A DNA stretch of 64,000 nucleotides. It comes from an uncultured Candidatus Saccharibacteria bacterium (GTDB lineage Bacteria; Patescibacteriota; Minisyncoccia; Phycocordibacterales; UBA12088). Each line of letters begins with the position of its first letter. Positions within the stretch are counted from its first letter, which is position 1. Made by a program: the position numbers and the translations under genes. Shown one piece after another: positions 11,168-33,185 of the stretch. Location: positions 395,723 through 459,722 of the forward strand of contig CAZMLK010000001.1 of NCBI GenBank assembly GCA_964567265.1. The letters run 5' to 3'. Below the pieces are notes generated by a model. It did not search any database. It was not told where the DNA came from and saw only the letters and a program-made list of their open reading frames with translations.

Positions 11168-12439
11168 CTAATTTCCAGTCTTCAGGTAGACTGCAGCGCG
11201 TTCGAGCTGGGTGTCGCGACCGAGCTTGAGATCGTCCTCAGTGAATGTGACCGGGATATCAGGCGTGAGGCCTCCGGCTGAGATGGAACGGCCATTCGGA
11301 GTGAGCCACTGCGCGACGGTCACCTTGAGCGAGGTTTCCGGAGTCACGTTGATGAGCTCCTGTACCGATCCCTTTCCAAAGCTGCGCTCGCCGATCAGCT
11401 TCGCTACTCCCTGCTCCTGGAGCGCGCCTGCGAGGATTTCTGATGCCGATGCGGAACCCTGGTTGATGAGGACCGCGACCTTGAAGTTGTTATTCCCGTA
11501 GATGTTGTAGCCCTTGCTGCGGTATGTGCGGTTCTCCTGTCCGCCTCCGAAGTGCTCCTCAACGACCACCTTTCCGGTCGGGAGGAACCATCCGGCCATA
11601 TCGACAGCAGCCTCGAGGAATCCTCCCGGATTACCGCGGAGGTCTATGACGAGCTTGTCGGACTTACTCTCGAGGAACTTGCGGATCGCGTCGCGGAAAT
11701 CATTCGCTGACGTGGCACCGAAGCTATAGAGGTGGATCACGTAGACATTGTCAGGACGGAGTTCCTGCGCGATCGTCGGGACCTTGATGGTATCGCGGAC
11801 GATGGTGACTTCGATCGGCTTGTCGGAGCCCTTGCGGATGAGCGTGAGCGTGACCTTGGTCCCGATCTTGCCGCGGATCTTCTTGACTGCTTCTTCGACA
11901 GAAAGGCCTTCCGTCGTGACGCCGTCAACCTTCGCGACGAGGTCTCCTGCCTTCACGCCGACCTTCTCCGCCGGTGAATCCTTGAGCGGAGTCACGACCG
12001 TGACAATGTCATTGCGGAGGCCGATCTCCATACCTACGCCACCGAAGCTGCCATTAATGTCATCGTTGAACTGCTGGTTCTTGACCGGTGGGAAGAAGAC
12101 CGTATACGGATCGCCCAGCGATTTCGCGAGCCCTTCGATGGCGCCCCAGACTTTGTCCTGGTCGTCGATGCGCGCTTCGAGCGCGGAGCTCGTAGATGTC
12201 GTCGCGGATGTCGCAGGAACGTAGCGCTGGTTGATTATCGCCCACGCCTTGTAGAGCGGCGCGAAATCGACTCCTTCTGGCGGCGCAGTATAATCGCTAC
12301 CGACGATGGTCATGGTACTCGCACGCGTCTCTTGGTAGTCGCCGATTGCGAGGCCTGCGAAGAATGCGACGGATACTAACACGAGGATAAACGAGTAACC
12401 GACGCCGCTCTTTCGGATATGCGCGAGTATTGTATTCAT
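11168..12439 (-). CDS. ctpA: S41 family C-terminal processing peptidase with PDZ domain
   Basis: GGVGMEIG, PDZ segment (SPAEKVGVKAGD), LINQGSASASEILAGAL, FGKGSVQ. Start set at the second Met (MNTILAHIRK) because a TTGACG-N17-GATACT promoter lies 8 nt upstream. Confidence 0.9.
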   Translation of the reverse strand: MNTILAHIRKSGVGYSFILVLVSVAFFAGLAIGDYQETRASTMTIVGSDYTAPPEGVDFAPLYKAWAIINQRYVPATSATTSTSSALEARIDDQDKVWGAIEGLAKSLGDPYTVFFPPVKNQQFNDDINGSFGGVGMEIGLRNDIVTVVTPLKDSPAEKVGVKAGDLVAKVDGVTTEGLSVEEAVKKIRGKIGTKVTLTLIRKGSDKPIEVTIVRDTIKVPTIAQELRPDNVYVIHLYSFGATSANDFRDAIRKFLESKSDKLVIDLRGNPGGFLEAAVDMAGWFLPTGKVVVEEHFGGGQENRTYRSKGYNIYGNNNFKVAVLINQGSASASEILAGALQEQGVAKLIGERSFGKGSVQELINVTPETSLKVTVAQWLTPNGRSISAGGLTPDIPVTFTEDDLKLGRDTQLERAAVYLKTGN

Positions 12440-25911: not shown

Positions 25912-28848
25912 TTATCGCATCACTCCCCGCGTCAGCGTCCCAAAATAGCCAGTACCCGCAGAGAGTCCTGCTGGTTCGAGGATATCTGCGACATGCGCGT
26001 TCTGAAAGAGGATGAGGGCTGCCTTAGTAGCAGGTCCGAAGAAATCAGTCTCGAATCCTGGCGACCCTGCTCCTACAGCGGACACTGTAAATCCATGTAC
26101 ATTCAAGTACATCTGAAGCTGACGGACATCTTCCCCGCGAGATCTGACTCTGAGATTGCGCGGGAAAGTCACTGACGTCATGGCAGGCGTCGTTGTTGAT
26201 ACCGAAAGATTTCCAAACACTTCATTGAGTTTCGCCAGCGTCAGCGGGCCGACGACACCATAGCCGGTCGTGCTCGGTGTGCCCGTGGTGACGATACCGT
26301 ACTTCGCTTGGAATCGTCGTACTGCGGCTTCCGTCAGCGCACCATAGAATCCGTTGACAATGGCTTCCGGGTACAGGGCAGCGTCTGAGGCAAAGAGTTG
26401 TTGCAAGGTGCGGACGTCTGGGCCCTGCATGCCGGGGAAGAGCGCGTTCGTGAAGATTGGACTCCTGCCTGTCGACGGCATCAACGGGGCAGGTTGTTGA
26501 TTGGAAGTACCAGGAATGGTCACCGCAGCTGAACAGACTGAGAAGGCGTTGCAGTATTTCACATAGAGCGTGCTTGTAGTATCAGGCCATGGGAGCGAAC
26601 TGGTTGCATTCACGTAGGTTGCAGTAGCGAACGAAGGGTCCGTGGAAATGGCAATCTTCGTGATATCCGTTCCGAATGAGAATGTGAGGATCCGTCCTGA
26701 CGGGATTGGCGTCGTTGACGTGGCAGCAAATCCTCCAGATGGACCCGTAGGGACTGGTGCACTTCCACCTCCTCCGCCCGAGGGTGGCAGGACGATATTC
26801 ACCGTTCGCGTTGACACCGCACTGTTCCCTGCCGTATCGGTTGCCGTGTAGGTAATGCGGTATGTTCCGACCGTGCCCACCGTCACTGTGTCCCCACCTG
26901 TGGTGACCGACACTGTTCCATCGACATCATCGGTCGCCGATGCGCCCGGGTCCGCAAAGCCCTGGCCGATGGTTTGAGTGATGGAGGCAGCTCCCGAAAG
27001 CGTAATGGTCGGCGCGACCGAGTCGGTATATTCGTACGCACCGATATCGCAGACACCCTGACGACTGACACCATTTTTGTCTGTCGTTGGGCACAGAGAA
27101 TCCGTGCCCGCATTGATGGCTGGGGAAGATGCGAGGAGGCGGTAATCACCCCCTGACACATCAGCCAATACGGGATCACTAGTCAAAGAATGCGACCCTA
27201 GAGAAAATCCCGACCCAGAGACTGACGCCGTTGCCGTATGTGCAATGAGGCTATAGTCTTCACTCACACTCGTCGCACCGGTTGTTTTCGAGATACCCGT
27301 CGCAAATCCATATATCAAATTGTTACGCAACGTAACGTTCCCTGTTGATTGGAGCGACATCGCTACGCCTGACTGCGACGGATTGATGAGGGTGTTGTTA
27401 TAGAACGAGAGCGCGGCCGCATCAAGCAACGTTACCAGTGCATTTGTTCCTGCGACTGTGGTGTATCCGAATACGTTTCCATACGCGATAATTGACGAGT
27501 TTTCAATATTTGTGACTGCACTTTTTTTATTGCCCCAAGCATACGAATTGGTAAGCCTGCCCCCTGACGTCTCGTGCCATGAGAATCCGTCACCATCGGA
27601 ACCAGATCCATCGACTCCATTGTTTGTAGATGTAGCATGATCGATGTTGATTGTGGGTCCATTATGAAATCCAAATCCATCATTCGTGTTGCTATCTGCG
27701 GTTGAATTTAAAATCGTTACGGTACCGCCAGTACCCGCGACAGCAACCCCGTTGGAACCAGTGACCGTGCCATTACTGTTGAATGTCGAACCGGACAATG
27801 TAAGGGTGTCACTTGATCCTCCCATGGTGACATTGATGCCAGCAAGACCGTTTGAACCCACGGTGAGATTTGAAAATCTTGACCCAGTTGACCCTGCCAG
27901 CATCAATATGCCGTCAGACGTATTGTTGGAGACCGTCGTCGTAGCAATGATTGCATTTGTTGGCTTCGAATCGAATCGGATTCCACGAGCAGTATTCCCA
28001 GTAACGGTCGAGTTTTTAATCGAAATTCCACTTGCGGTATTCAATATATATATTCCGTTCGAGCCGCAGCCCTGAATGGTAACTCCATCAATGACTGCTG
28101 TGGTGACATTATTCAAGATGAGGCAATCTCCTGAACCGCCTGTGATCGTAGAGGAGGTAATGGTGATATTTGAGCCAGCAGCCACAGAACTTCCAAACTT
28201 CATGCCGCTTGTTGAGGCGGTGATCGTGAGGTTTGAAAAAGTATCTCCTTGCGACTTGGTACCATTCAAGTTTATGCCGGTTGTAAAACCACTGACCGTA
28301 ATGTTGTCATATGTGCTCGCGGTACTGGTAGCATTGGTACTGATGACGATGGCCTGCGTTGTTGTGCCGCTAATTGAGAGATGGTTGAAATTAAGTCCGG
28401 TAAACGTACCTGAAAATACAAAGATGCCTGATTCGGACGGACTTCGTAAGACAAGATTTTGAATCGTCAGATACGATGCGCTGTTGCGAATATCGAATAT
28501 CCTATTCTGGCTTCCGGCATTCAGAATGGGATTGGCACCAGTGCCGTATGCATCAAAAACAATTGGATTTCCAGATGTACCCGAATCGTCAAACAGCGTT
28601 ATCTTTATATTTGAGAACGTTTCACCTTTCTTGAATAAAATCTGGTCTCCTGCCACGAAAGTGCGCGCGTTGATTGGTGTAGCCGACTGCCACGGCGTTC
28701 CACTGCTCGTACCATTATTCGAATCGCTGCCAAGAGTGGCGTCCACATAGTATGTCGCCGCGCTTGCCAGCGACGGCACTGCAGTCACAGCAAACAACGC
28801 TATTGCTGCAAATACAAACGCGATGTTTTTTGGGTAATTTTGAGGCAT
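25912..28848 (-). CDS. secreted right-handed parallel beta-helix protein with Ig-like (DUF5011-type) domain and two C-terminal peptidoglycan-binding (PG_binding_1-like) repeats
   Basis: Signal-like N-terminus, then TYYVDATLGSDSNNGTS..PW. Many N.(T/S)I..(N/S) beta-helix rungs. GVCDIGAYEY (choice-of-anchor-Q-like). DVDGTVSVT...GTYRITYTATDTAGN (Ig-like). GPDVRTLQQLF...FYGALTEAAVRRFQ and GEDVRQLQMYL...FGPATKAALILFQ (PG-binding). Confidence 0.85.
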   Translation of the reverse strand: MPQNYPKNIAFVFAAIALFAVTAVPSLASAATYYVDATLGSDSNNGTSSGTPWQSATPINARTFVAGDQILFKKGETFSNIKITLFDDSGTSGNPIVFDAYGTGANPILNAGSQNRIFDIRNSASYLTIQNLVLRSPSESGIFVFSGTFTGLNFNHLSISGTTTQAIVISTNATSTASTYDNITVSGFTTGINLNGTKSQGDTFSNLTITASTSGMKFGSSVAAGSNITITSSTITGGSGDCLILNNVTTAVIDGVTIQGCGSNGIYILNTASGISIKNSTVTGNTARGIRFDSKPTNAIIATTTVSNNTSDGILMLAGSTGSRFSNLTVGSNGLAGINVTMGGSSDTLTLSGSTFNSNGTVTGSNGVAVAGTGGTVTILNSTADSNTNDGFGFHNGPTINIDHATSTNNGVDGSGSDGDGFSWHETSGGRLTNSYAWGNKKSAVTNIENSSIIAYGNVFGYTTVAGTNALVTLLDAAALSFYNNTLINPSQSGVAMSLQSTGNVTLRNNLIYGFATGISKTTGATSVSEDYSLIAHTATASVSGSGFSLGSHSLTSDPVLADVSGGDYRLLASSPAINAGTDSLCPTTDKNGVSRQGVCDIGAYEYTDSVAPTITLSGAASITQTIGQGFADPGASATDDVDGTVSVTTGGDTVTVGTVGTYRITYTATDTAGNSAVSTRTVNIVLPPSGGGGGSAPVPTGPSGGFAATSTTPIPSGRILTFSFGTDITKIAISTDPSFATATYVNATSSLPWPDTTSTLYVKYCNAFSVCSAAVTIPGTSNQQPAPLMPSTGRSPIFTNALFPGMQGPDVRTLQQLFASDAALYPEAIVNGFYGALTEAAVRRFQAKYGIVTTGTPSTTGYGVVGPLTLAKLNEVFGNLSVSTTTPAMTSVTFPRNLRVRSRGEDVRQLQMYLNVHGFTVSAVGAGSPGFETDFFGPATKAALILFQNAHVADILEPAGLSAGTGYFGTLTRGVMR

Positions 28849-29022: not shown

Positions 29023-30603
29023 CTACATCGTTATCTGCACCGCATTCCCCGCCTGATCGTATCCATTCGCCTTGAAGTAACGGATCTCGTAGCTGCCGGG
29101 AGTGACATTCTGGAATGTGTAGGTGCCCGATGGGCCGGTCGCATACGACCATGCAAGATACGAGCGGTTGCCTGCCCCGGTCGCATAGAGCCCGATCCAG
29201 TCGGTCGTCGTGAACGCAGTACTTGGGCCCACCCAGCTCGCGATGATTGTATTTCCAGATCTCGATGCGGAGAGTGAATATCCGGCTGCGGCAGAAAGAT
29301 CAGCTCGTGCGACTGCCGCCTTCGCCTGTACGGTGATTTCCGGAGTAACTGCAACTGATGTGTATTTATTATTCTTCAGATACCGGATCTCGAAGGTGCC
29401 GGTGCGGTCGAGCGTGAATGTCATGTCGCCGCTCGCAGCATCCCCGGTGTATTTCCAGGTCCCGTAGCTCCGGTTCGACGCGCCCTTCTCATAGATCGCG
29501 ATCCAGTCCTGCGTATTCGACGAGCCTCCTGGCGTCTGCCAGTGCACGGTCACGGTATCACTAACTCGCGGGGTCTGAGAGGAAATCGTGAGCGAGTATC
29601 CGGCTGCCGCTGCAGCGGAGCCCAGTGTATAGGTCGCTGAGGTCGCACGCCGGGTGTAGCCGTTGTTCTCGAAGGTACGCGCCTCATATGCGCCGGGCTC
29701 GAGCGAGTCTGTATTGAAACTGAGCGTTCCCGAATTGCCGGATGGAAGATACTGCCACAGAAGATAGGAGGAATCAGCAGCGCCGACCGGATAGAGCCCG
29801 ACCCAATCCCGCGAACTGCGGCCGGTCGGCGCCTCGAACCGCACCGAGAGCGTATTCCCGGAAATGCCATTGATGGCGAGTGCGTAGTTCCCTACGGGTG
29901 CAGCCGCAGCGCTTCCGGTCGTACCGGTGGTTCCGTCTTCTGTTCCCGTCCCGCCACCACCAGTCACGATCTCGCGCCACGGACCGCTGGGCACATTGCC
30001 CGCGTCCACGAACCGCCAAGACACCAGCATCTGGTCGCCGCCGTTCAAGCAGTCGCGCATGGCGGGAGAGAGATCGATGCCGATTGATTGGCGCGGTCCC
30101 GCGCTTCCGAATACGTACGCAATATCATCCTCACCGTATGGTCCGACATCTTCCCACTGGCCGTAGCAGGTCGCACCGTTCGAGGTGACCGCCACCCAAT
30201 GATTCTTGAGCTGCGAAACGCTCTTGCTCGCGCCGGATTGATACCACGGGATCTGGCTCGCGTTCGATTTCTGGGATCCGTTATTGCCGATGTCGTTATA
30301 CGGAAGCGCGATATAGAACGGATTCTCCTTCGGAGTGAACGCGCACGGGCGGTAGCCGCATCGATTGTCGGGATCGTCTTCCCCGCCGTAATGAGTTGCC
30401 CAGAGCTCGTCCCATGCGCTCGGGACGTTCGAGATGAAGCCGTTGTCTGAGGTCGCGCCTTCGCCTACCCAGAAGACAGTCGCGTTGACCGTTTTCGGGT
30501 TCGTTTCGGTCGCGGTGATGGCTGCTGCCGGGTATGGATAGGCTGCTCCGAGTAGAAGGAGGAATACGGCTAGCGATGCGGCTCTAATGCCCTTCCGATT
30601 CAT
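29023..30603 (-). CDS. secreted protein: N-terminal conserved module (possibly DPBB/barwin-like) plus 3 copies of the same ~90-aa repeat found in 23325..25730
   Basis: Signal-like LAVFLLLLGAAYPYPAAA. N-terminal module has VFWVGEGATSDN, ENPFYIALPYND and GIDLSPAMRD. The repeats carry DWVGLY...YEARTF, DWIAIY...FEIRYL and DWIGLY...YEIRYF. Confidence 0.75.
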   Translation of the reverse strand: MNRKGIRAASLAVFLLLLGAAYPYPAAAITATETNPKTVNATVFWVGEGATSDNGFISNVPSAWDELWATHYGGEDDPDNRCGYRPCAFTPKENPFYIALPYNDIGNNGSQKSNASQIPWYQSGASKSVSQLKNHWVAVTSNGATCYGQWEDVGPYGEDDIAYVFGSAGPRQSIGIDLSPAMRDCLNGGDQMLVSWRFVDAGNVPSGPWREIVTGGGGTGTEDGTTGTTGSAAAAPVGNYALAINGISGNTLSVRFEAPTGRSSRDWVGLYPVGAADSSYLLWQYLPSGNSGTLSFNTDSLEPGAYEARTFENNGYTRRATSATYTLGSAAAAAGYSLTISSQTPRVSDTVTVHWQTPGGSSNTQDWIAIYEKGASNRSYGTWKYTGDAASGDMTFTLDRTGTFEIRYLKNNKYTSVAVTPEITVQAKAAVARADLSAAAGYSLSASRSGNTIIASWVGPSTAFTTTDWIGLYATGAGNRSYLAWSYATGPSGTYTFQNVTPGSYEIRYFKANGYDQAGNAVQITM

Positions 30604-30618: not shown

Positions 30619-30674
30619 CAATTTTTCGGGGGTGGGGGCAAGGGAGAAATACAAAATCACAGTACCTTGAAGCA

Positions 30675-31538
30675 TCACTGATTTCCAGCTTCAAGCTGTG
30701 GATCGAGATCGTCCATGATGTACCGCATGAATTGTTTTCCCAGTTCAGTGAGAACCTGTTGATCATCGTTGAATGGAGACTTGAGCGTCTTAGCTTGGGG
30801 ACCGGCTTTCTTTTTTGCGACTCTTCGTCGCCACTGCCCATCCGCATCCGATTCTCGAGGTTGGCGCATAACGTCAGCCATTTGGAGTTCGTGGAAAAGG
30901 AACTTGAACAAATCGGCCTTCGCCGAGTCATCCCTTGGTATCTCACCGAATATCTCCGTTGCGATATCGTAAGAAGATATACCCGGATTCTGGTACACCA
31001 GCCTGAGTATCTGGAAATGAAGCTCGTGGAATCGCTCCATAAATTCCACAAAGAGGCGGACCACATCGTCATCCACAACGCGCATGCCAGCGGCGTTAGT
31101 GATGAGTTTTCGCAAACTCTCCCTTTTCTCGGTGGTATCGGCGCCGTCCCAGACGCGGAAAGTCTTACGCACAAGATTCAGATATTCTGTCGACTCTATT
31201 CGCTCTTCCGTCTGAATTCCAAATATCTCCAAACGCTCAAAGACACGACGCATATCCGCTAGTAACTCGCGAAGCTTCAACTCGTGCTCTTGTACCCACA
31301 AGAAAAGGAGCTTGTTCGTTATGCCTTGCTCCTTCTCGGCTGATAGAGTGGCAGCAGCACTTAAGACGCTTCCAACCCACGGAATACCACTCAACGCCGC
31401 CATTGCAACGCGTCCGTATTTCTTCCAATTTCCACCCGTTAGTTGCTCAAGAATAGCCCGCTCTTTTTCATTCAATACAACTGCTTCGATGCGTTCCGGG
31501 AGTTTGTGGTCTGCCATGGGAATCAGTCTACTCCTCAT
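30675..31538 (-). CDS. hypothetical protein (orphan, AT-richer than its neighbours)
   Basis: 287-aa ORF, alternative start at 31517 (MADHKLPERI). No recognised motif. Visibly lower GC than the flanking genes. Confidence 0.55.
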   Translation of the reverse strand: MRSRLIPMADHKLPERIEAVVLNEKERAILEQLTGGNWKKYGRVAMAALSGIPWVGSVLSAAATLSAEKEQGITNKLLFLWVQEHELKLRELLADMRRVFERLEIFGIQTEERIESTEYLNLVRKTFRVWDGADTTEKRESLRKLITNAAGMRVVDDDVVRLFVEFMERFHELHFQILRLVYQNPGISSYDIATEIFGEIPRDDSAKADLFKFLFHELQMADVMRQPRESDADGQWRRRVAKKKAGPQAKTLKSPFNDDQQVLTELGKQFMRYIMDDLDPQLEAGNQ

Positions 31539-31634
31539 ATATTTATCAGCAAATTTCTCGTAACATGTAACGAAATATGATTTTGTGCCCCCGTCTAGCT
31601 TCAGTGTGGTCGTCGGTCCTTACAGGACCAGTAT

Positions 31635-31726
31635 CCCGATTGGATTTTTTAGTGCGGCCATAAATGGCCGACAAAAAATGCTCAATCGGGCTTCGACTCC
31701 CGGACGAAGTCTCCCCCGGAGACTTC
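31635..31726. other. structured intergenic element: long imperfect hairpin, inverted tRNA T-arm fragment and 9-bp hairpin
   Basis: CCCGATTG (31635) pairs with CAATCGGG (31683), enclosing T6/A6 and CGGCCA/TGGCCG stems. CGGGCTTCGACTCCCGG (31687-31703) is the reverse complement of the tRNA-Glu T-arm with 1 insertion. GAAGTCTCC-ccc-GGAGACTTC at 31706-31726. Confidence 0.5.
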
Positions 31727-31758
31727 TTAGGGTCCCAACTTTCGCTACGCTCAATTTG

Positions 31759-31830
31759 TGACCCTACCGGGAGTCGAACCCGGCTTTAGAGCTTGAGAAG
31801 CTCTCGTCCTAACCGATAGACGATAGGGCC
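31759..31830 (-). tRNA. tRNA-Glu (anticodon CUC)
   Basis: Hand-folded 72-nt cloverleaf: acceptor GGCCCTA/TAGGGTC, D-arm GTCT-ATCGGTTA-GGAC, anticodon arm AGAGC-TTCTCAA-GCTCT, 4-nt variable loop, T-arm CCGGG-TTCGACT-CCCGG. CCA is not encoded. Confidence 0.9.
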
Positions 31831-31861
31831 AATGTACACCGAAAGTACCACAGTTTCCCGA

Positions 31862-31898
31862 TTTTAAAAAGGTGAGGCCGCCCAAGACATGGGCGGCC
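31862..31898 (-). terminator. rho-independent terminator of the 31903 gene
   Basis: Minus strand: GGCCGCCCA-tgtct-TGGGCGGCC followed by TCACCTTTTTAAAAT. Confidence 0.75.
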
Positions 31899-31902
31899 CA
31901 CT

Positions 31903-32205
31903 TCATTGCTTTGCTGGTTCGACAAGCTCAAGCGCGTCTGGGTGATACGTCTTATCTCGGCCTGACAAATGTACCTGTCCGCGCGCGTCTACCGACTTTA
32001 CCTGGTACTCCTCCCATCCGCGCGCATCTACCAGGCGGACGATATCTCCCTTCTTGAACGTAACCACGACCTTGTTGGCTTTTTGGCCGTCAGCACGCGT
32101 CCGCTGGCGTTTTCTTGTGTCGCGCAAAATGTCAGAGATCGTCTCATTAATGATTCTCTGATGTACCGCTCCTGGCCGCCGCCTGTCTCCGCTGGCGATG
32201 TCCAT
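31903..32205 (-). CDS. hypothetical small protein (100 aa; basic N-terminus, beta-rich C-terminus)
   Basis: Own promoter, GGAGG RBS and terminator. Start moved to MDIASGD within track ORF 31903..32283. No recognised motif. Confidence 0.5.
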   Translation of the reverse strand: MDIASGDRRRPGAVHQRIINETISDILRDTRKRQRTRADGQKANKVVVTFKKGDIVRLVDARGWEEYQVKSVDARGQVHLSGRDKTYHPDALELVEPAKQ

Positions 32206-32231
32206 CGAACCTCCATTCGTTGATGCTTTCG

Positions 32232-32262
32232 ATATTAAGATGCATATATTGAGATGTGTCAA
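32232..32262 (-). promoter_or_regulatory. sigma70-like promoter of the 31903 gene
   Basis: Minus strand: TTGACA followed 17-19 nt later by CTTAAT/TAATAT. Confidence 0.45.
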
Positions 32263-32301
32263 ATATAAGACCCCCGCGCGCACCTCGGTGCGGCGGGGGT
32301 C
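32263..32301 (-). terminator. rho-independent terminator of the 32309 gene
   Basis: Minus strand: GACCCCCGC..GCAC-cgag-GTGC..GCGGGGGTC followed by TTATATTTG. Confidence 0.7.
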
Positions 32302-32308
32302 GGACGGC

Positions 32309-32635
32309 CTAGGCCATCTGCGGCCAGACGAGACCTCTCATGAGCGAGCTGAGATCAGGCGTCGGGACTAGTTGGGAGATGCTGTGGAGCAGGCGGCGTA
32401 CTTTCCGCCCGCCCCGGACAGCGTCAGTCTGGATCGGCGTGACGTGGGCCATTAGGAGGCCAGTCCCCGTAAGAAACACTCGGCAAATGCGCACTATGAT
32501 GCGTCGTTTGCCGTCGATCAGATATGCCGTAAGCGCGGCGCCGCTTTTCAGTTGCTCCTTGAAAAATCGAAGGAGCGGATTTGTTGCCCGAGCCCGGGTA
32601 CGGCGGCCGCTATTCGTGCAAATCTTCAACGTCAT
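32309..32635 (-). CDS. hypothetical small protein (108 aa)
   Basis: GGAGG RBS 7 nt before the ATG, with its own terminator. No recognised motif. Confidence 0.5.
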   Translation of the reverse strand: MTLKICTNSGRRTRARATNPLLRFFKEQLKSGAALTAYLIDGKRRIIVRICRVFLTGTGLLMAHVTPIQTDAVRGGRKVRRLLHSISQLVPTPDLSSLMRGLVWPQMA

Positions 32636-32774: not shown

Positions 32775-33185
32775 TCAGGCAGGCACGACGCCCGCGATTT
32801 CGAGGAAGCGCTCACGAAGCCACGCAGGCGGTCGTGGTGTTTCCTCGCTTCCATCTGCTGCAATGATCACGTGCTGGCAGTTTGTGTCCGACATACCGAG
32901 CACATGTTCCCCAAGCGAACGCGCATACGCATCCATATATTGTCTCACGTGTCTTGCAGCGTCGCGTCGCCTCCGCGTACTGAGCGAGAGCGCCTTCCGC
33001 CAGAGATGCGAGGGCTTGAACCAGTCGCGTGTTTCAACATACAGGCAGACAACCGAGATCGGGCAAATGCCGTCTCGGTAAGACGGAGGCACGAATCGTA
33101 GGTGCGTACCATGTATGAGAACGGGGGTATAGCTTCCGTTGCAGATTGCTGTTTTAAGCGTTGAAAGGAATGTTTCGATATCCAC
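32775..33185 (-). CDS. hypothetical protein (136 aa, GTG start)
   Basis: Own TTGACT-N17-TATAAA promoter, GGGGAG RBS and terminator. No recognised motif. Confidence 0.5.
   Translation of the reverse strand: MDIETFLSTLKTAICNGSYTPVLIHGTHLRFVPPSYRDGICPISVVCLYVETRDWFKPSHLWRKALSLSTRRRRDAARHVRQYMDAYARSLGEHVLGMSDTNCQHVIIAADGSEETPRPPAWLRERFLEIAGVVPA

Follow-up and report, generated by a model that had tools for sequence, protein, structure and literature searches.

What is the structured spacer that follows the tRNA-Glu gene in this stretch of DNA, and what is to be made of the inverted piece of tRNA that it contains? The stretch comprises 64,000 nucleotides (nt) of contig CAZMLK010000001.1 and is referred to below as the window. 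A first-pass annotation described the spacer as carrying an inverted copy of the tRNA T-arm beside two hairpins, and offered an attachment-site scar, a tRNA pseudogene remnant or a processing/regulatory element as explanations. We find that the spacer belongs to a previously undescribed, lineage-wide family of fold-back modules (no Rfam match) located at a tRNA-Glu integration hot spot. As to what these modules do, we give about an even chance to the reading that the spacer forms the palindromic attachment module at the tRNA-proximal end of a mini-island without an integrase, which would resemble a cis-mobilizable element (CIME), the module perhaps being active as a folded single strand.

The tRNA-Glu gene and its 3' flank

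tRNA-Glu(CTC) is the sole tRNA gene in the window and lies on the minus strand at 31758-31830 (ARAGORN; Rfam RF00005, 56.9 bits), so that 31560-31757 is its 3' flank. ARAGORN detected no second tRNA and no tmRNA on either strand, and Rfam 15 returned only tRNA matches for the window at gathering threshold, for 31450-31950 at E <= 10 and for eight related loci at gathering threshold. With no matches, tmRNA, Y-RNA and other Rfam families were rejected as identities for the spacer.

The inverted copy proved to be larger than initially noted. Its exact 12-mer, TTCGACTCCCGG, occurs twice in the 64 kb, at 31692-31703 on the plus strand and in the T-loop and 3' T-stem strand of the tRNA at 31767-31778 on the minus strand; when one mismatch is allowed, there are 4 matches compared to 0.65 expected. 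Around this core, the match described earlier (31687-31703 with 31767-31783, about 65 nt apart) extends to two inverted arms of 23 nt, 31681-31703 and 31767-31789, which are 83% complementary and separated by 63 nt. A second inverted piece had been overlooked: TAGGGTC at 31728-31734 (plus strand), together with about 6 further nt, mirrors the 3' strand of the acceptor and the trailer (14 nt, 86%). Because this piece adds the acceptor part, the inverted copy corresponds to tRNA positions 54-73 plus trailer and is split in two by a hairpin, with a T-part at 31692-31703 and an acceptor part at 31728-31740. An inverted-repeat search confirmed both hairpins that had been reported, namely the imperfect one of about 56 nt (arms 31635-31661 and 31664-31690, 27 nt each, 70% complementary) and the perfect one of 9 bp (31706-31714 with 31718-31726), and each is present in a single copy within the window. 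The parts of the module, in order from the tRNA, are as follows.

31758-31830, minus strand: tRNA-Glu, anticodon CTC, with an intact cloverleaf, the insertion target gene (ARAGORN, Rfam RF00005); same sequence in the close strain L109
31759-31778, minus strand: fold-back arm A, tRNA positions 54-73 (T-loop, 3' strand of the T-stem, 3' strand of the acceptor, discriminator), from sequence, the minimum free energy (MFE) fold and the RNAalifold consensus
31752-31757, minus strand: extension of arm A, the trailer CAAATT, from sequence
31742-31752, minus strand: loop of the fold-back with mini-hairpin GAGCGTAGCGA (C-G-closed GNA triloop with tandem G.A flanks), from a motif scan
31728-31740, minus strand: acceptor part of arm B, AGTTGGGACCCTA, 11/13 pairs with the acceptor 3' strand and trailer; covaries with the tRNA in relatives
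31706-31726, no strand assigned: hp2, GAAGTCTCC-ccc-GGAGACTTC, the perfect hairpin of 9 bp, which separates the two parts of arm B at the three-way junction, from the inverted-repeat search
31692-31703, minus strand: T part of arm B, CCGGGAGTCGAA, 12/12 pairs with the T-loop and 3' T-stem strand; the inverted T-arm of the first-pass annotation
31635-31690, no strand assigned: long imperfect hairpin, the body stem of class 1 modules, from the inverted-repeat search
31615-31629, minus strand: small hairpin GGTCC-TGTAA-GGACC, whose loop CTGTAAG is the class 1 signature
31580-31598, minus strand: repeat C, CTAGACGGGGGCACAAAAT, a degenerate direct repeat of the tRNA 3' end and trailer, from its counterpart in the relative L001 and a weak match in the window

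When folded together on the tRNA-sense strand, the tRNA and the spacer (291 nt) reach -123.6 kcal/mol (z = -7.2), and in this MFE fold the 3' half of the tRNA pairs with the spacer. The earlier suggestion that the spacer pairs with the T-arm in a read-through transcript is physically possible in the window, because there is no terminator-like site on the minus strand between 31517 and 31758, that is, before the next open reading frame (ORF). However, the tRNA and arm B of most relatives are separated by a hairpin that, with the T-run after it, resembles a terminator, so that co-transcription is unlikely to be the point of arm B.

Conservation of the modules and their insertion into tRNA-Glu

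Exact look-ups of proteins from the window found no record, and relatives were instead gathered through MurF, which is encoded close to the tRNA gene; the loci, labelled L001 and so on, total approximately 1.30 Mb, and the MurF relatives of the window are Patescibacteria, specifically Paceibacteria-like metagenome-assembled genomes. tRNA-Glu adjoins murF, in either orientation, in 51 of the 80 Paceibacteria loci fetched. The exact 72-nt tRNA had no match in the scanned genome and metagenome collections, and the lineage-specific pattern of arm B plus hp2 had none in the scanned metagenomes.

A complement of tRNA positions 54-65 (at least 11/12 pairs, within 130 nt downstream) was present in 12 of 52 tRNA-Glu loci compared to 0/52 reversed-sequence controls; in these 12 Paceibacteria loci, the inverted copy sits 40-80 nt downstream. 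Each copy fits the tRNA of its own genome, such that four T-stem/loop variants and three acceptor variants are all matched. An identical layout follows tRNA-Glu in L001, the closest reference genome (MurF 68% identical): its T-loop reads TTCGATT against TTCGACT in the window, and the C/T difference is answered by G/A in the inverted copy (CCGGGAATCGAA vs CCGGGAGTCGAA), and its small hairpin has another stem sequence with the pairing kept. For an alignment of 10 sequences, RNAalifold produced a three-way fold in which the 3' part of the tRNA is paired to the inverted arm, with the small hairpin in addition; 93.8% of the alignment cells are paired, compared to at most 52% in slid controls, and 16 of the 31 pairs are altered on both sides, compared to 6.5 +/- 1.7 in shuffles (0/500 reach 16). 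An equivalent of hp2 occupies the same position in 9 other genomes with differing stem sequences (7/8 aligned pairs changed on both sides). Taken together, the empty controls, the tracking of each genome's own tRNA, the fraction of paired cells and the compensatory changes exclude a chance match.

The architecture thus recurs across related genomes with compensatory changes, and it spans genomes whose MurF proteins are only ~45-68% identical, with stems that differ in sequence yet pair. Several loop and junction motifs are conserved and strand-specific (CTGTAAG, GA[AG]CGNAG[CT]GA and GCCGGAG...CGAGGCGGGGTCGCGAG). Two classes of module body were distinguished. Class 1 bodies (window, L001, L005, L007, L024, L075 and L076) have a long hairpin, which in the six relatives is at the matching position and of unrelated sequence, and a small hairpin whose loop, CTGTAAG, is kept in the window and in five of the relatives (L005, L007, L024, L075, L076) and reads TTGTAAG in L001. 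Class 2 bodies have a hairpin with a GA internal loop and a GGTCGCGAG/CTTGTGACC stem with conserved G.U pairs; a hidden Markov model of this body found 21 copies in the 1.3 Mb and none in the window, and wherever the locus has a detected tRNA-Glu, the copies are all co-oriented with it and within ~1.3 kb.

At +120 to +210, at least 14 relatives have a second, direct copy of the 3' part of the tRNA (16-23 nt), with low values in upstream controls; the copy begins at G57 in the T-loop and runs a few nt beyond the gene, and a good terminator often follows it. L068 and L026 are without a module, and their native tRNA flank reappears in L067 after a third direct copy, at +285. This comparison of the occupied L067 with the empty L068 identifies the modules as insertions into the tRNA gene. 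Of the explanations offered at first, the attachment-site scar accordingly comes closest, given the direct repeats and the L067/L068 pair, except that a passive scar does not agree with a conserved arm that tracks the tRNA. In the window and in L001, repeat C is decayed (CTAGRCGGGGKCAC, T-loop part gone), and in each it still follows the genome's own trailer, the L001 counterpart CTAGGCGGGGTCACAGAT agreeing with the trailer of L001. We read repeat C of the window as the putative displaced fragment of the original tRNA and hence the right end of the module. Because it is without the T-loop part, the only partner of the inverted T-part in the lineage of the window and L001 is the tRNA itself; given that arm B is still 12/12 complementary and tracks the C/T change, the fold-back of arms A and B is what is maintained.

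The modules form arrays and enclose cargo. A PRAI gene lies between two near-identical modules in L067, three dissimilar modules are present in L009, and 29-nt repeats enclose a 99-amino acid (aa) ORF in L008. In L013, an insertion of ~410 nt, bounded by the 3' end of tRNA-Glu and its direct repeat, contains a gene for an 88-aa GIY-YIG nuclease (11589-11855, plus strand; Pfam E = 7e-15), which may be the homing-type agent behind at least part of the insertions at tRNA-Glu. The genes directly downstream of tRNA-Glu belong to no families common between genomes and are in either orientation, and the idea that the spacer is a leader or riboswitch of one conserved gene was rejected on that account.

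Exchange is also apparent at the level of strains. In L109, whose MurF is 97% identical to that of the window and whose tRNA is identical, another module type and other ORFs occupy the same site: homology between the two stops right after GGGTCACAAA and resumes ~50 nt before a common 526-aa gene, which delimits a strain-variable segment. L001 has the module type of the window and no 280-aa gene. The segment and its cargo are as follows.

30655-31754, minus strand: strain-variable segment, module plus cargo, from alignments with L109
30675-31517, minus strand: 280-aa ORF, the cargo, with GAGGAG resembling a ribosome-binding site upstream, from the ORF list

The 280-aa ORF had no match in Pfam, PADLOC or PHROG, and the gene is absent from L109 as well as from L001.

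Several further arrangements were observed around tRNA-Glu. Class 2-like modules in permuted order lie upstream of the gene in L048 (11396-11878), L056 (6650-6790) and L006 (7560-7700), the body being followed by a hairpin of the T-loop/3' T-stem and its complement (CGATTCCC-TCG-GGGAATCG), a promoter-like stretch and the tRNA. L048 also has a tandem duplication of ~330 nt that takes in only the first 22 nt of the tRNA, and L006 has a tRNA copy that is cut off in the anticodon loop just ahead of the intact gene. Tandem class 2 arrays of two to four bodies, with units of ~95-146 nt, are present in L015 (12580-12960), L079 (1600-1990) and L115 (2860-3319). L115, a contig from IMG/VR, has genes of cellular appearance (GalE, cytidine deaminase, GDSL lipase) and module arms that fit another T-loop, TTCAAATCCCT; L079 is labelled Acidimicrobiales and has a Paceibacteria-like MurF, which may reflect mis-binning. 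In the window, a 13-nt direct repeat (12/13 the same) joins the module body at 31629-31641 (sense AATCGGGATACTG) with a site just upstream of the tRNA at 31851-31863 (AATCGGGAAACTG); it may be due to chance or may be a trace of an upstream module or a permuted junction.

Attachment site, RNA element or scar

The reading that we favour, an attachment module, can be put as a series of steps. A small integrase-less insertion, of a sort that is common in Paceibacteria (Patescibacteria, also known as the candidate phyla radiation, CPR), would have integrated into tRNA-Glu(CUC) at a point between its T-loop and its 3' end. The insert would bring a new 3' part of the tRNA, arm A, which would now lie within the working tRNA, followed by a short loop, by arm B as an inverted copy split by the small hairpin, by the hairpin-rich body and by repeat C, the presumed displaced 3' fragment of the original tRNA, decayed in the window. 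Arms A and B form a long fold-back with a three-way junction, and this palindrome would be the attachment site, which a recombinase encoded at another locus and acting in trans would use in the form of a folded single strand, like the integron attC or the CTX-phage attP hairpin. Repeated site-specific recombination at tRNA-Glu would account for the stacking of modules, for the small cargo genes and for the strain swaps. The data establish the insertion, the repeats in both orientations, a conserved fold, a strand bias and the behaviour of a hot spot, whereas the recombination mechanism, the single-stranded form and the recombinase in trans are inferred.

Which strand folds was addressed in several ways. 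In 17 of 18 elements, the tRNA-sense strand folds better than its complement. The motif GA[AG]CGNAG[CT]GA has 30 matches in the 1.30 Mb compared to ~10 expected (~3-fold enrichment), and the matches within 330 nt downstream of tRNA-Glu, including that at 31742-31752 in the window, are all on the tRNA-sense strand (13/13). Wobble pairs agree, with 11 G.T cells vs 4 A.C cells. The folded strand is thus the tRNA-sense strand; RNA and single-stranded DNA are not separated by this bias.

A number of observations weigh against an attachment module. No integrase or transposase Pfam family was found in two or more of the 143 ORFs within 6 kb of the tRNA (families with a single member were not listed), a crude scan for the tyrosine-recombinase box-II motif was negative in all loci and in the window, and scans of viral contigs for module motifs yielded no circular, attP or autonomous form. 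In these contigs, CTTGTGACCGATTCC gave 28 chance matches in coding DNA, the hp2 consensus gave 0, and a gapped class 2 pattern identified one contig, with cellular-looking genes and tandem class 2-like modules. The insertion status of the window rests on homology to L001 and on the family pattern because its own right-end repeat is weak, and class 2 bodies that are upstream of the tRNA, or in tandem without clear repeats, are unpredicted by a simple integration model. The strand bias fits RNA and single-stranded DNA equally, and approximately half of the raw energy asymmetry is compositional, given that shuffling yields z-scores that differ little between the strands (sense -5.0, antisense -4.4); raw MFE asymmetry was therefore downgraded as proof of a sense-strand RNA. 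Finally, the conserved G.U pairs and the GA (k-turn-like) internal loop of class 2 are commoner in RNA, and the module of the window is probably transcribed given that no terminator separates it from the tRNA.

A less likely contender is a role as RNA, with the module working in cis on the tRNA strand. The element would be transcribed as part of pre-tRNA-Glu, forming its 3' trailer and, in the window, the 5' leader of the 280-aa ORF, with arm B pairing with the 3' half of the tRNA or, in relatives, with repeat C (a 12-17-bp minihelix resembling acceptor and T-stem); its roles might include tRNA processing or turnover, a tRNA-like small RNA or decoy, or control of read-through into cargo. The better folding of the sense strand (17/18), the sense-strand mini-hairpin motif (13/13), the class 2 G.U pairs (GGTCGCGAG/CTTGTGACC) and internal loop, the compensatory changes in every helix, the unterminated module of the window, the use of the A:B pairing in the MFE fold that includes the tRNA and the position of repeat C, often ahead of a good terminator as at the end of an RNA gene, are all consistent with such an element. 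However, the shuffle z-scores are alike on both strands, most relatives have a strong terminator-like hairpin and T-run before arm B with no room for a promoter, the A:B pairing would rival the cloverleaf of an essential tRNA, and Rfam has no matching family. Furthermore, repeat C is exactly identical to the tRNA into the trailer, which along with the empty site speaks for recombination at the DNA level and not for convergent mimicry by RNA, and the unrelated downstream genes, in either orientation, exclude a leader specific to one gene.

Improbable, in our estimate, is a neutral scar, in which the tRNA fragments are the remains of an old integration or inverted duplication, arm B has no function of its own and complementarity is kept only by quasi-palindrome correction (template switching) or short-patch gene conversion. 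Template switching can homogenise palindromes near strongly selected sequence, rearrangements, among them partial tRNA duplications, are concentrated in the region, no recombinase was found nearby, and repeat C of the window is decayed, all as expected under this explanation. It accounts less well for a multi-hairpin architecture that persists, with stems still pairing, across MurF identities of ~45-68%, for conserved and strand-specific loop and junction motifs, and for several divergent copies of the module per locus, each with cargo; in addition, the interruption of arm B by a hairpin of 21-24 nt would make simple conversion tracts unlikely.

A degenerate or unusual tRNA-like gene on the plus strand, convergent with tRNA-Glu, is largely refuted and very improbable: candidate pieces do occur in tRNA order (5' acceptor-like GTGCCCC, an anticodon-like hairpin loop CTTACAG, a T-arm-like CGGG-CTTCGACT-CCCG, an inserted hairpin, and TAGGGTC followed by CCA) and the plus strand of the spacer alone folds with z = -3.2, but ARAGORN and Rfam give no match even at E <= 10, acceptor pairing in the window is poor, the T-stem is missing in L001, most relatives have ACA in place of the CCA, and wobble pairs, the mini-hairpin motif and MFE favour the opposite strand. 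The tRNA pseudogene remnant proposed at first is not supported either, since ARAGORN and Rfam give no match, the T-stem is not conserved in L001 and the strand-specific features favour the tRNA-sense strand. Bridge-RNA/IS110, IS200/605 omega-RNA, homing guides of CRISPR-associated transposons (CAST), retrons and type III antitoxin repeats were rejected because no cognate protein was found; direct repeats of 16-29 nt also do not fit any of these mechanisms.

Known systems, neighbouring genes and significance

Among known systems, genomic islands in tRNA genes (tDNA islands) are defined in the Islander database by a regenerated target together with a displaced fragment (PMC4383910). The modules resemble them in the insertion into the 3' part of a tRNA gene, the regeneration of that gene with the displaced 3' fragment as a distal direct repeat, the tandem accretion and the hypervariable cargo; insertion and distal repeat are both present in the family, the window repeat at 31580-31598 being degenerate. 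In contrast to tDNA islands, the modules are either non-coding units of only ~120-220 nt or units of ~0.4-1.1 kb that hold a single small ORF, and no integrase gene was found in or near them, where an island would encode its own. Moreover, a classical attP has no inverted copy of the att or tRNA sequence, whereas the modules carry one that forms a long fold-back.

CIMEs are att-flanked, integrase-less derivatives of integrative elements (PMC5704250). They share with the modules non-autonomous DNA, attL/attR-like repeats at the 3' end of the target gene and accretion arrays; putative att repeats are present here, recombinase genes were not found within 6 kb and viral contigs contained no autonomous relative. 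However, the modules are far smaller, and a conserved internal secondary structure with strand-specific motifs is not a feature of CIMEs.

The integron attC site and the CTX-phage attP(+) hairpin, which is used by XerCD, are folded single-stranded recombination sites. The likeness lies in an imperfect palindrome with structure conserved over sequence, in strand-specific features, in small promoter-poor single-gene cassettes in arrays and in a hairpin that imitates a double-stranded target. The modules differ in that they are without R''/L''/L'/R' boxes, a GTTRRRY core or IntI (no IntI-like ORF was found in the ORF family search or the motif scan of the loci), the target is a tRNA gene rather than attI or dif, and the single-stranded intermediate is purely conjectural; their repeats are tRNA-derived (GGTCACA/TGTGACC, GATTCCCCG), unlike those of attC. 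Rfam includes attC-type motifs, none of which matched here.

Repetitive extragenic palindromes (REP) and bacterial interspersed mosaic elements (BIME), with REP-associated tyrosine transposases (RAYT) of the HUH type, are dispersed genome-wide. Short strand-specific hairpins, tandem arrays in alternating orientation and sites after genes or terminators are shared features, whereas the modules lie only within ~1.3 kb of tRNA-Glu in the 1.3 Mb of loci, with none elsewhere in the window, and no RAYT was seen; a REP-like dispersed repeat was rejected given that the hairpins of the window are unique in 64 kb. RNA structures that resemble tRNA and are processed by tRNA enzymes, such as mascRNA/MALAT1 and the bacterial YrlA, come to mind because the B:C pairing of relatives would produce a minihelix of acceptor and T-stem ending like tRNA-Glu. 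Nevertheless, the Rfam mascRNA match is the tRNA itself, YrlA is insignificant (14 bits, E = 5), and the modules have no T-loop.

In Thermococcales, integrases drive inversions between tRNA genes or att copies (PMC5495485). There, as possibly here, inverted tRNA-derived att copies are recombination substrates, and tRNA-Glu flips relative to murF among the relatives, but no integrase was identified for the modules. Because the inverted copy is only ~20-80 nt from its partner, an inversion between the two would flip only a loop. As a separate observation, tRNA-Glu is on the strand opposite to murF, 1-9 kb away with variable genes between, in L002, L004, L005, L007, L016, L017, L020, L024, L026, L029, L043-L045, L051-L053, L067 and L075; its recurrence in many relatives suggests repeated inversions or insertions around tRNA-Glu. 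Of the 143 ORFs scanned, 8 belong to the RmuC family, each no more than 6 kb downstream of tRNA-Glu in its own related locus. RmuC has been linked to limiting inversions at short inverted repeats; here, the gene is probably just a conserved neighbour.

The window itself places tRNA-Glu in a cell-division and cell-wall cluster with the penicillin-binding protein FtsI and the Mur ligase MurF. Both in the window and in L109, ~1.4 kb with small ORFs (31903-32205, 32309-32635 and 32775-33185, all minus strand) lies between murF and tRNA-Glu, a gap of only ~80 nt in L001. These ORFs had no PADLOC or PHROG match; an extended ORF at 31903-32283, which holds the first of them (100 aa), has a sub-threshold Pfam match to Colicin_E5 (E = 0.004, 17.7 bits vs a cut-off of 25), a tRNA anticodon nuclease. 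Past the variable segment are a 526-aa secreted-looking protein with an SKICH-like repeat (29023-30603, minus strand), conserved in L109 and L001, and a 978-aa secreted-looking protein with beta-helix, Ig-like and peptidoglycan-binding domains (25912-28848, minus strand), conserved in L109.

A bolder extension of the attachment-module reading, which we consider speculative and rather unlikely, is that Paceibacteria have a tRNA-anchored cassette system, in which an unlinked recombinase or nuclease inserts, stacks and exchanges single-gene cargo at tRNA-Glu. The fold-back single strand would imitate the T-arm and acceptor end of tRNA-Glu, and the enzyme might be a housekeeping Xer-like, HUH or GIY-YIG protein. 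As an alternative to such a system, the modules may represent a new class of tRNA-Glu-mimicking structured RNAs.

For annotation, spacers of this kind should not be labelled tRNA pseudogenes, and the adjacent ORFs are best treated as strain-variable cargo. The ultra-small CPR bacteria have tiny genomes with few recognisable mobile elements, and the gain and loss of accessory genes in this group is therefore poorly understood. At the locus described here, exchange recurs at a precise position in tRNA-Glu(CUC), and the site is bounded not by an integrase gene but by a non-coding module with a conserved structure. If the fold-back works at the RNA level, it would represent a new kind of tRNA mimic, in competition with the folding of an essential tRNA. 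If it is the attachment site of an unlinked enzyme, it would provide a new route of gene-cassette exchange, and tRNA-targeted integration without a resident integrase would be directly testable; should the cassette system prove true, it would amount to a functionally integron-like platform on a tRNA gene.

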